DNA from: Amphiscolops sp. MND2022
Lineage: Eukaryota
NCBI GenBank assembly: GCA_964187785.1
Contig: OZ076409.1
Span: 15,192,001 to 15,256,000, forward strand
Length of the DNA stretch: 64,000 nucleotides
Direction of reading: 5' to 3'
Shown: one piece after another, positions 21,761 through 22,747 of the stretch
Position numbering within the stretch: the stretch's first letter is position 1
Layout: each line of letters starts with the position of its first letter
Position numbers and translations under genes: made by a program
Notes under the pieces: model-generated
Database searches by the model: none
Told to the model about the DNA's origin: nothing
What the model saw: only the letters and a program-made list of their open reading frames with translations

Positions 21761-22747
21761 TCAATTTTGTTGACTGCTACCTGGCTGCTGCCTTCGACAG
21801 GCAACCGCAGTATACTTGTTGGCAAGAGTAAGCTGCTGTTGCGCCCTCTCCTCGTCCACAGACATCTCAACAGAGAACATTGGACAAATGCGGCCCTCCT
21901 CCACATCTGTCCAGACTGAGTGCAGCCAGCCATAAGGAAGGTATAGAGACTGCCCAGGCTCCAGAAGGACCCAGAAAACCTGCTTGGCCATCGTCTTATT
22001 CAGGCTCTGCAAATAGCGAAGGGTTCTACTTGCTGCCTCTCTACGATCCCTTCCCAGACGATCCAGCTCTCGCGCGACATTTGACAGGTTGCACATTAGC
22101 CACAACTTCTTTCCTCTCAGCAATGTCAGAAATGCATCACCTTCCTCATGTAGATCATGATGAAAGGCTCGGAAACTGGACTGCTCTACCAGAATCAACA
22201 ATCCTCGCCTTTCCTCCACCACACTCGGAAGGGGCTGCCGCAGCACAACTGACCCCTCACAGAATCCTCCAGTCAAAACCCTTGACGGCAACTCCAAGGC
22301 GTTCTGCACCTCTCTCCCTCTCTGCACTGACGTTGGCAGATTCTCAAAGCTGCTAGCAGACAACAGCGCCTCCTATAAGCATCAAGTACAACAGATATTT
22401 GCAATTTTATTCATTTTCAGTTCTAGTACAATTCTGGACACCTTTTGTTTATATGATTCATTGTTTCAACAAGAAAGAATTCTTACCGATTCTGCTTCGG
22501 GCAGCCACCCAACGCTCGAGGTCAACAAAGCAGGTTCCTCGCGACGCTGCAGAACCTCATCCACCCCTCGAACAGGCACCTTTGAGAAATTGGAGCCCCT
22601 CAACCACAGAAGAAACTCATCGAAGGTCGGCAAGGCTTCCTTCTTCTCATCTCTTCTGGGCCTCTTGAAGGACTCCTCAAACTCGGGCATCTTGGGCTGT
22701 CTTCCACTCCTCTTTCTTCCCTCCTCAGATCCCATATACTCAGCCAT
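21761..22747 (-). CDS. Two-exon JmjC-domain (2OG/Fe(II) dioxygenase) protein, about 290 aa, carried antisense inside element 2
   Basis: Exon 1 22747-22487, phase-0 intron GTAAGA..TTATAG 22486-22373, exon 2 22372-21761 in frame. Motifs FHHD (HxD), LRGKKLW (GxKxW) and LEPGQSLYLPYGWLHSVWT. Minus-strand AATAAA at 21731-21726. An alternative in-frame ATG lies at 22774. Confidence 0.85.

Follow-up and report, generated by a model that had tools for sequence, protein, structure and literature searches.

A BEL/Pao long terminal repeat (LTR) retrotransposon in the genome of Amphiscolops sp. MND2022 carries, antisense between pol and its 3' LTR, an intact gene for a protein of the JmjC fold. The stretch of DNA analysed, hereafter the window, comprises 64,000 nt of the forward strand (assembly GCA_964187785.1, contig OZ076409.1, positions 15,192,001-15,256,000), and the element occupies positions 11055-23004 within it. 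As judged by sequence comparison and structure modelling, the residues for binding metal and 2-oxoglutarate (2OG) are in place, and the product is a predicted Fe(II)/2OG oxygenase limited to a catalytic core like that of KDM7/PHF8 enzymes. Substitution patterns among copies indicate that the gene is under purifying selection, and related genes in divergent elements show that it is old and has diverged together with several BEL/Pao lineages. The role proposed for the enzyme, that it would remove repressive histone methylation and thereby counter host silencing, is put forward tentatively and with somewhat less than an even chance of being correct.

The JmjC gene lies on the minus strand in two exons, running from an ATG at 22747 to a TGA stop at 21763-21761, and encodes about 290 amino acids (aa). 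Exon 1 (22487-22747) contributes 87 codons, in which a basic and probably disordered N-terminus (GRKRSGRQPKMPEF, KRPRR) is followed by the first folded elements; a second in-frame ATG stands 9 codons upstream of the first (22774). An intron of 114 nt in phase 0 (22373-22486, minus strand, GTAAGA..TTATAG, 28% GC) separates this part from exon 2 (21761-22372), where 203 codons (22372-21764) and the stop hold the double-stranded beta-helix core with H71, D73, K89, W91 and H151. In exon 2, H71-H72-D73 correspond to positions 22162-22154 and the distal His151 to 21922-21920. A sequence-only reading of the window had proposed an intact minus-strand gene of about 290 aa between the end of pol at 21310 and the polypurine tract (PPT) and 3' LTR, with a full set of JmjC motifs and basic N-terminal clusters. 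The gene is found where that reading placed it, with exons of 87 and 203 aa, and the HxD motif, the distal His, RGKKLW, LEPGQSLYLPYGWLHSVWT, RKRSGR and KRPRR are all present at the positions it gave. Its frame is open as well, though the surrounding element is defective, a defect that the reading did not mention. Across lineages, a basic motif near the N-terminus (22720-22680 in the window) is conserved, reading GRKRSGRQPKMPEF here and SGRSRRVPEY, SGRQPRVPSY or SGRKRRVDPF elsewhere. Located in a region modelled as disordered, it could serve as a nuclear localisation signal (NLS) or a docking motif.

The fold was assigned from family profiles and from structure models. Pfam matches exon 2 to JmjC_2 (E 9.8e-5, 22.3 bits against a cut-off of 22) and to Cupin_8 (E 1.1e-4, 22.6 bits, below the cut-off of 27.4). 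Of the paralogues described below, L058 and L065 match PF02373 (25.1 and 24.0 bits, respectively, against a cut-off of 24), and most have no Pfam match. A HMMER search covering 1.84 billion representatives at a threshold of E <= 0.001 returned 38 relatives, none of them named and some of them uninterrupted proteins of 283-294 aa. When a profile built from these 38 members was run against the PDB, the only significant matches were PHF8 (E 1.6e-9), KDM7A (1.5e-6), PHF2 (1.5e-4) and ceKDM7A of C. elegans (2.2e-4); JMJD7, KDM2A and JMJD6 were non-significant (E 0.03-0.35) and FIH was absent from the matches at E <= 10. AlphaFold2 (AF2) modelled exon 2 with a mean predicted local distance difference test score (pLDDT) of 90.4 and a full-length homologue, in which the first ~40 residues are disordered, with one of 88.1. 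The top Foldseek matches are PHF2, ceKDM7A, PHF8, KDM7A and KDM2A, and the folded part of the homologue model (residues ~35-283) covers the whole catalytic core of PHF2, PHF8 and KDM2A. A language-model look-up also points to JmjC clusters. The profile and structure searches therefore match the JmjC fold that had been read from motifs, and the suggested resemblance to KDM2 and KDM7 enzymes holds in that the nearest solved relatives by sequence are KDM7/PHF8/PHF2, then KDM2A.

In JmjC Fe(II)/2OG oxygenases, which belong to the cupin clan (PF02373, PF08007, PF13621), a Lys some 15-18 residues past the HxD motif binds the C5 carboxylate of 2OG. The H71/D73/H151 triad aligns with that of PHF8, and K89 corresponds to the Lys in the GEK motif of PHF8. 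Over the 38 sequences, H71, D73, K89 and W91 are at least 90% conserved, and conservation across the family peaks at the first His, the Asp, and the Lys and Trp of the GxKxW strand. The H/D/K/H set is retained in 25 of 29 paralogue matches, which amount to 20 of 24 distinct matches. The likeness to KDM7/PHF8/PHF2 (JHDM1D), and next to KDM2A, thus comprises the best PDB sequence matches, the best or tied-best structures, and an aligned HxD...H triad and GxK Lys. There are also differences, since the BEL/Pao protein is a predicted enzyme only, encoded antisense by a retrotransposon, is ~290 aa long where those enzymes have ~1000, and shares 10-18% identity with the solved chains. Word-indexed protein searches returned near relatives only, and a search of this kind for longer, fused relatives found none, which is weak evidence on this point.

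Within the 1.07 Gb assembly, the 987-nt JmjC region has 25 matches, of which six are full-length at 99-100% identity (the window copy included) and seven lie at 86-91%; compared with one another, the six are 98-100% alike. Among 19 other loci that were fetched, the integrase C-terminus stands on one side in 14 and the LTR on the other in 18, with order and orientation kept; two of these loci are the same copy, hence the distinct copies number 13 and 17, respectively. Conservation among copies is 88-100% over the 56 nt that separate the JmjC ATG from the LTR. The gene sits inside the LTRs and the target-site duplication (TSD) and recurs between the same neighbours in at least 13 further copies of the window family, in agreement with the earlier proposal that it moved with the element. 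All six young copies have an open exon 2, and in four of them the gene is open throughout, while the older copies are decayed, with stops, frameshifts and long terminal branches. Two features could suggest a host gene or fragment enclosed by chance in a single insertion, or a chance open reading frame (ORF): the exons have a GC content of 53-54% against 28-43% in the remaining element, and the gene has an intron. That explanation is refuted by the recurrence of the gene between the same neighbours, both at numerous unlinked loci and across divergent lineages; the position inside the TSD, the purifying selection and the confident predicted fold also speak against it, and it retains practically no probability.

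Comparison of the window copy with eight older copies gives, for the JmjC coding sequence, a nonsynonymous divergence (dN) of 0.05-0.08, a synonymous divergence (dS) of 0.27-0.32 and dN/dS ratios of 0.17-0.29. In the same copies the integrase C-terminus has higher ratios, of 0.28-0.52. The synonymous excess in the JmjC gene is significant in every pair tested (p 1e-7 to 2e-11), and these values argue for purifying selection rather than for the neutral evolution that the sequence-only reading had regarded as contrary to its proposal. The older copies decayed on long terminal branches, and these ratios must therefore understate the constraint on the active lineage. A separate observation concerns the non-coding parts. 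For the same copy pairs, the JmjC exons have a dS that exceeds the divergence of the intron (0.06-0.12) and of the spacer downstream of the gene (0.08-0.14) by a factor of two to four, and the GC content is 53-54% in the exons against 28-35% in intron and spacer. Such a difference would arise if the non-coding parts were under constraint or if the exons had a higher mutation rate.

The gene extends well beyond the window family. When the assembly was searched at the protein level, 335 candidates yielded 151 matches, many of them 31-52% identical and in open frames of 200-330 aa. The ten places that were fetched hold at least eight distinct lineages in which BEL/Pao gag-pol (DUF1759, Peptidase_A17, RVT_1, rve, DUF5641) is followed by an antisense JmjC-like ORF, stop facing stop. 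Among these divergent lineages, numbering at least eight, the JmjC proteins are 25-52% identical, and their pairwise identities correlate with those of the integrase C-terminus (r 0.59, Mantel p 0.005, for eight lineages; r 0.87, p 0.0002, when two near-duplicate pairs are included). This correlation fits co-inheritance and not repeated capture. Two short public contigs show the same convergent layout of JmjC and BEL/Pao pol, so that at least one organism besides this one has it. Of the database homologues, one reaches no more than 66% identity with its best counterpart in this genome, and a second is without any match in it. By these comparisons the JmjC gene has long been part of several BEL/Pao lineages and has diverged along with them. 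The sequence-only reading had called it cargo, a term that holds in so far as the gene is element-borne and fails in its implication of recent capture, since the gene is old, has co-diverged in several lineages and occurs in another organism. One candidate, L064 (26% identity; one of three metagenome loci), was set aside as an unrelated and probably bacterial JmjC, with frames open on all six strands and no pol nearby.

To sample elements by integrase score alone, five further elements were drawn from the best DUF5641 matches. One of the five carries a more divergent antisense JmjC-like ORF (hhalign 98.2%, E 4e-14; Pfam JmjC 24.0 bits at a cut-off of 24). The other four lack such an ORF, one having a fragment of a long interspersed nuclear element (LINE) endonuclease in that place and three nothing recognisable. 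Only some BEL/Pao lineages thus have the gene, which the first search had undercounted, and it is not needed by BEL/Pao elements in general. The genome has at least 6214 candidate DUF5641 sites, and many of the 150 that were scored lie in open frames of 1650-1770 aa; its BEL/Pao population is very large and partly young. Two arrangements of JmjC-like genes depart from the common layout. At L060 (G000:C8:31636800-31646700), 238-aa JmjC-like ORFs form a tandem array (C8:31638241, 31642335 and 31646418, a spacing of ~4.08 kb) with no integrase match adjoining and with an intron retained at the usual site of the family, and the array could be a domesticated or satellite-like derivative. At L059 (G000:C8:48062000-48071900), two identical units 3173 nt apart each hold a 265-aa JmjC-like ORF convergent with a 616-aa integrase-only ORF, making up a tandem of truncated elements without gag, protease (PR) and reverse transcriptase (RT).

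The intron bears on how the gene may be expressed. Exon 1 can be aligned gap-free with residues 1-84 of a 283-aa homologue that has no intron (E 7e-17), and residues 19-195 of exon 2 match its residues 105-283 (E 1e-56); because both exons are colinear with this protein, the predicted splice is validated. The GT..AG boundaries are retained in 15 of 17 aligned loci of the window family. Together with the window family, L056, L057 and L060 make four lineages with a GT..AG intron at the homologous codon, just past a conserved LP motif, while L058 (G000:C3:41810400-41820300) has an intron at another site, just before the strand that bears HxD, and the lineages with proteins of 288, 309 and 327 aa have no JmjC intron. 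Since the sites differ or are absent among lineages, introns have been gained or lost within the element-borne gene. Within a retroelement, an intron outlasts retrotransposition only where it lies on the strand opposite the genomic RNA, as it does here, and its retention provides indirect evidence that the gene may be expressed as its own spliced antisense messenger RNA (mRNA). Just 56 nt, including the polypurine tract, precede the ATG before the 3' LTR is reached, so that the promoter would have to be in the antisense LTR or beyond; the 3' LTR read antisense, behind which no other DNA of the element lies upstream of the JmjC start, is the likely site, as far as the layout allows one to infer.

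The substrates of the nearest relatives suggest a function for the predicted enzyme. KDM7, PHF8 and PHF2 relatives act on H3K9me2, H3K27me2 and H4K20me1, the methylated forms of lysines in histones H3 and H4. In the proposed course of events, the 3' LTR would drive transcription of the gene in antisense orientation, and the resulting RNA would be spliced and then polyadenylated at an AATAAA past the stop. The basic N-terminus would direct the protein to the nucleus, where it may erase lysine methylation of the H3K9me2, H3K27me2 or H4K20me1 type, and the loss of these repressive marks would weaken chromatin silencing of the element family. On the sequence and model evidence this counter-silencing function is held tentatively, as one that may well turn out otherwise. 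A more elaborate version may also be considered, in which an old animal BEL/Pao branch carries a dedicated counter-defence gene. That gene would encode a minimal KDM7-like demethylase expressed from an LTR-driven, antisense, intron-protected unit and erasing H3K9- or H3K27-type methylation directed by Piwi-interacting RNA (piRNA), the SGRxxRVPxF/Y motif would serve as a chromatin or nucleosome anchor in place of the plant homeodomain (PHD) finger, and the loss of His71 in old fixed copies would reflect host-level selection against active erasers. It is unlikely that all of these parts hold together.

Several observations weigh against a demethylase that serves the element. The Pfam scores given above lie at or under the curated cut-offs. 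The structure comparison ties the demethylases with the hydroxylase FIH, and the fold alone cannot tell them apart. In PHF8, a Thr three residues before the first His contacts 2OG; the HMMER alignment places an Arg of the family at this position. KDM7/PHF demethylases have an N-terminal PHD finger, linked to the JmjC domain, that reads H3K4me3, whereas Pfam detected neither a PHD finger nor any other domain of that kind when applied to exon 1, the full-length homologues and the paralogue ORFs. Lacking a reader domain, the protein has no evident means of being guided to the chromatin of its own element, and if free it would act in trans. At the level of elements and copies, the JmjC ORF was absent from four of the five elements sampled by integrase, the metal or 2OG residues are lost in L057 (H151N) and in L060 (L71/N89/N151), and His71 is lost in four of eight older copies of the window family. 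Lastly, an antisense transcript could itself feed RNA interference (RNAi) against the element.

Some of these observations would suit an enzyme that serves the element in another way, namely as a protein hydroxylase of the FIH, JMJD5, JMJD6 or ribosomal-oxygenase type acting on a host factor (in translation, splicing or innate sensing) or on the Gag or integrase of the element. Cupin_8 and JmjC_2, the families matched by Pfam, are rich in hydroxylases, and both the lack of a chromatin reader and the Arg in place of the PHF8 Thr are in keeping with this function. Set against it is the profile search, in which significance was reached by KDM7/PHF8/PHF2 chains only (E 1.6e-9 to 2.2e-4), with JMJD7, KDM2A and JMJD6 outside that range and FIH unlisted, and the basic N-terminus looks nuclear, as far as its composition suggests. 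A hydroxylase function is rated as rather unlikely, yet as the main rival to the demethylase. A nucleic-acid substrate, such as a modified base of the element RNA or complementary DNA (cDNA) or of the transfer RNA (tRNA) primer, would be a further variant. TYW5, a JmjC enzyme, acts on tRNA, and an LTR retrotransposon ORF for a 2OG oxygenase active on RNA carrying N6-methyladenosine (m6A) has been published in orchid Gypsy elements, where the enzyme belongs to the AlkB type. Neither AlkB nor TYW5 was matched significantly in the Pfam and PDB searches, and the nearest relatives all modify proteins, which leaves this variant very improbable.

The catalytically dead forms raise the question of whether catalysis matters at all. 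The protein might be a non-catalytic regulator that binds chromatin or RNA, or the antisense transcript itself might regulate the element. Dead forms persist both in the tandem array of L060 and in L057, the latter beside an open gag-pol frame of 1751 aa, His71 is lost in half of the older copies of the window family, and the antisense extra ORFs of plant LTR retrotransposons have an assumed regulatory role in the accessible part of one source (PMC8220671). The metal and 2OG residues are nevertheless the best-conserved columns of the family and are kept in most distinct paralogue matches, the dN/dS ratios of 0.17-0.29 reflect selection on the protein beyond that on RNA, and the dead copies may be mere decay. 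A non-catalytic role is considered improbable.

The changes at His71 form a pattern of their own. Among the eight older copies (L007-L015), the codon of the first metal His has changed from CAT to TAT in three and to CAG in one, and the next His codon reads TAT in two (window 22162-22157). These changes do not track the copy tree, as the sister copies L008 and L011 differ. They point to recurrent mutation or to selection against active copies. APOBEC-like editing of minus-strand cDNA at His71 and His72 was considered and dropped, since singleton changes on the plus strand comprise 43 G>A against 80 C>T, with no excess of G>A.

Although the window copy is dead as an element, its JmjC gene is intact. 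It is bounded by the TSD AATTC (11050-11054), repeated as the identical 5 nt after the 3' LTR (23005-23009), and its plus-strand LTRs of 201 nt (11055-11255 and 22804-23004) begin and end with TG..CA and are identical at 201 of 201 nt; LTRs with such ends and a short TSD are hallmarks of BEL/Pao elements. The gag-pol remnant at 11329-14475 (plus strand), delimited by ORFs, Pfam and a sibling copy, includes the DUF1759 gag, the aspartyl protease, the start of RT, and the H2C2 and rve parts of the integrase. The sibling copy, on another contig, is 98.6-99.5% identical and has a single open frame of 1771 aa with the complete BEL/Pao order of domains (DUF1759, aspartyl protease, RT, Peptidase_A17, H2C2, rve, DUF5641), which is partial in the window copy; the complete set is also found in the paralogue lineages L052, L057 and L058. 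Compared with the sibling, the window copy has lost ~1.39 kb of RT and Peptidase_A17 at ~13783-13793, and its gag-pol is split over four frames. The integrase is further interrupted by an unrelated nested LTR element (14476-20653, plus strand), recognised from its LTR pair, its TSD GAGAA and the sibling comparison. This 6.2 kb insertion has LTRs of 899 nt (14476-15373 and 19755-20653) that are 99.6% identical and again bounded by TG..CA. It contains a 1204-aa ORF rich in Lys, Glu and Ser (16239-19853) that has neither a Pfam match nor a recognisable pol, and it is probably non-autonomous.

Past the insertion, the plus-strand region 20654-21310 encodes the C-terminal DUF5641 part of the integrase (Pfam E 1.8e-28) and the pol stop, and is continuous with 14475 in the sibling copy. 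A spacer with 35% GC (21311-21760) separates the convergent stops of pol and JmjC, an order kept in other copies, and on its minus strand the AATAAA at 21726-21731, 30 nt past the JmjC stop, is a candidate poly(A) signal from its sequence. On the far side of the gene, the purine-rich tract AAGGTGGGCGGGA (22791-22803, plus strand) adjoins the 3' LTR and reads as a candidate PPT. Outside the element, some 1.2 kb from its 3' end, an open frame of 216 aa (24185-24835, plus strand) matches Pfam HVSL of the USB1 type (E 4.2e-29) and represents a host gene exon.

One of the closest parallels among known systems comes from orchids, in which Ty3/Gypsy elements carry an extra ORF for an AlkB-type 2OG-dependent dioxygenase (2-ODD) that demethylates m6A and is viewed by its authors as countering host surveillance; the words JmjC, jumonji and cupin are absent from the accessible part of that paper (PMC9289625). 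Both cases involve an LTR lineage with a fixed ORF for an Fe(II)/2OG oxygenase, but the orchid case pairs a plant Gypsy element with an AlkB fold working on m6A RNA, whereas an animal BEL/Pao element is here paired with JmjC. In Amoebidium, endogenised giant viruses contain many reader-less, KDM4-like JmjC genes, which are described, in the portion of the report at hand, as thought to be host-derived and used at the interface of parasite and chromatin (PMC11244446). There too a genomic parasite has many copies of a demethylase-like JmjC stripped of its readers, although the carrier is a DNA virus of a protist and the subfamily KDM4, as opposed to a retroelement and a KDM7-like protein in the present case. 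Retrotransposons of dinoflagellates and charophytes encode cytosine methyltransferases (DNMTs), in a source whose accessible part makes no mention of JmjC (PMC5890265). There as here, retrotransposons have repeatedly taken up enzymes of host epigenetic systems, but theirs writes DNA methylation whereas the one described here is a putative eraser of protein methylation.

With respect to layout, plant LTR retrotransposons are reported to have antisense extra ORFs between pol and the 3' LTR with their own expression (PMC7264820, PMC8220671), to which the second source, in the part available, assigns no clearly known function. The BEL/Pao ORF differs in that an enzyme fold can be recognised in its product and that an intron interrupts it in some lineages. 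A survey of BEL/Pao elements, as far as its available text extends, describes gag-pol with env as only an occasional extra gene, present in a few, and contains neither 'antisense' nor 'JmjC' (PMC3118150); the lineages reported here add an antisense JmjC gene to that scheme. The sequence-only reading knew of no BEL/Pao family with JmjC, and no description of a retrotransposon-encoded JmjC was found in the literature either, subscription journals and Repbase notes being outside the scope of that search.

For those who annotate genomes of this kind, the finding means that hundreds of 'JmjC-like' ORFs should be masked as transposon genes and kept out of any tally of host chromatin regulators. Intron-marked reporter cassettes, which are used to follow retrotransposition, have a natural counterpart in the antisense intron, and this intron shows that an extra gene can stay split across many cycles of replication. 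Transposons that encode enzymes of the host epigenetic machinery are rare and informative. A demethylase-like gene fixed in animal LTR retrotransposons, if true, would be new in two respects, as an animal case and as a JmjC in a retroelement. Since the protein is small, confidently modelled and provided with obvious catalytic-dead controls, the idea is readily testable. If borne out, it would also be new in offering a direct handle on how such elements resist silencing based on piRNA or on H3K9 methylation.

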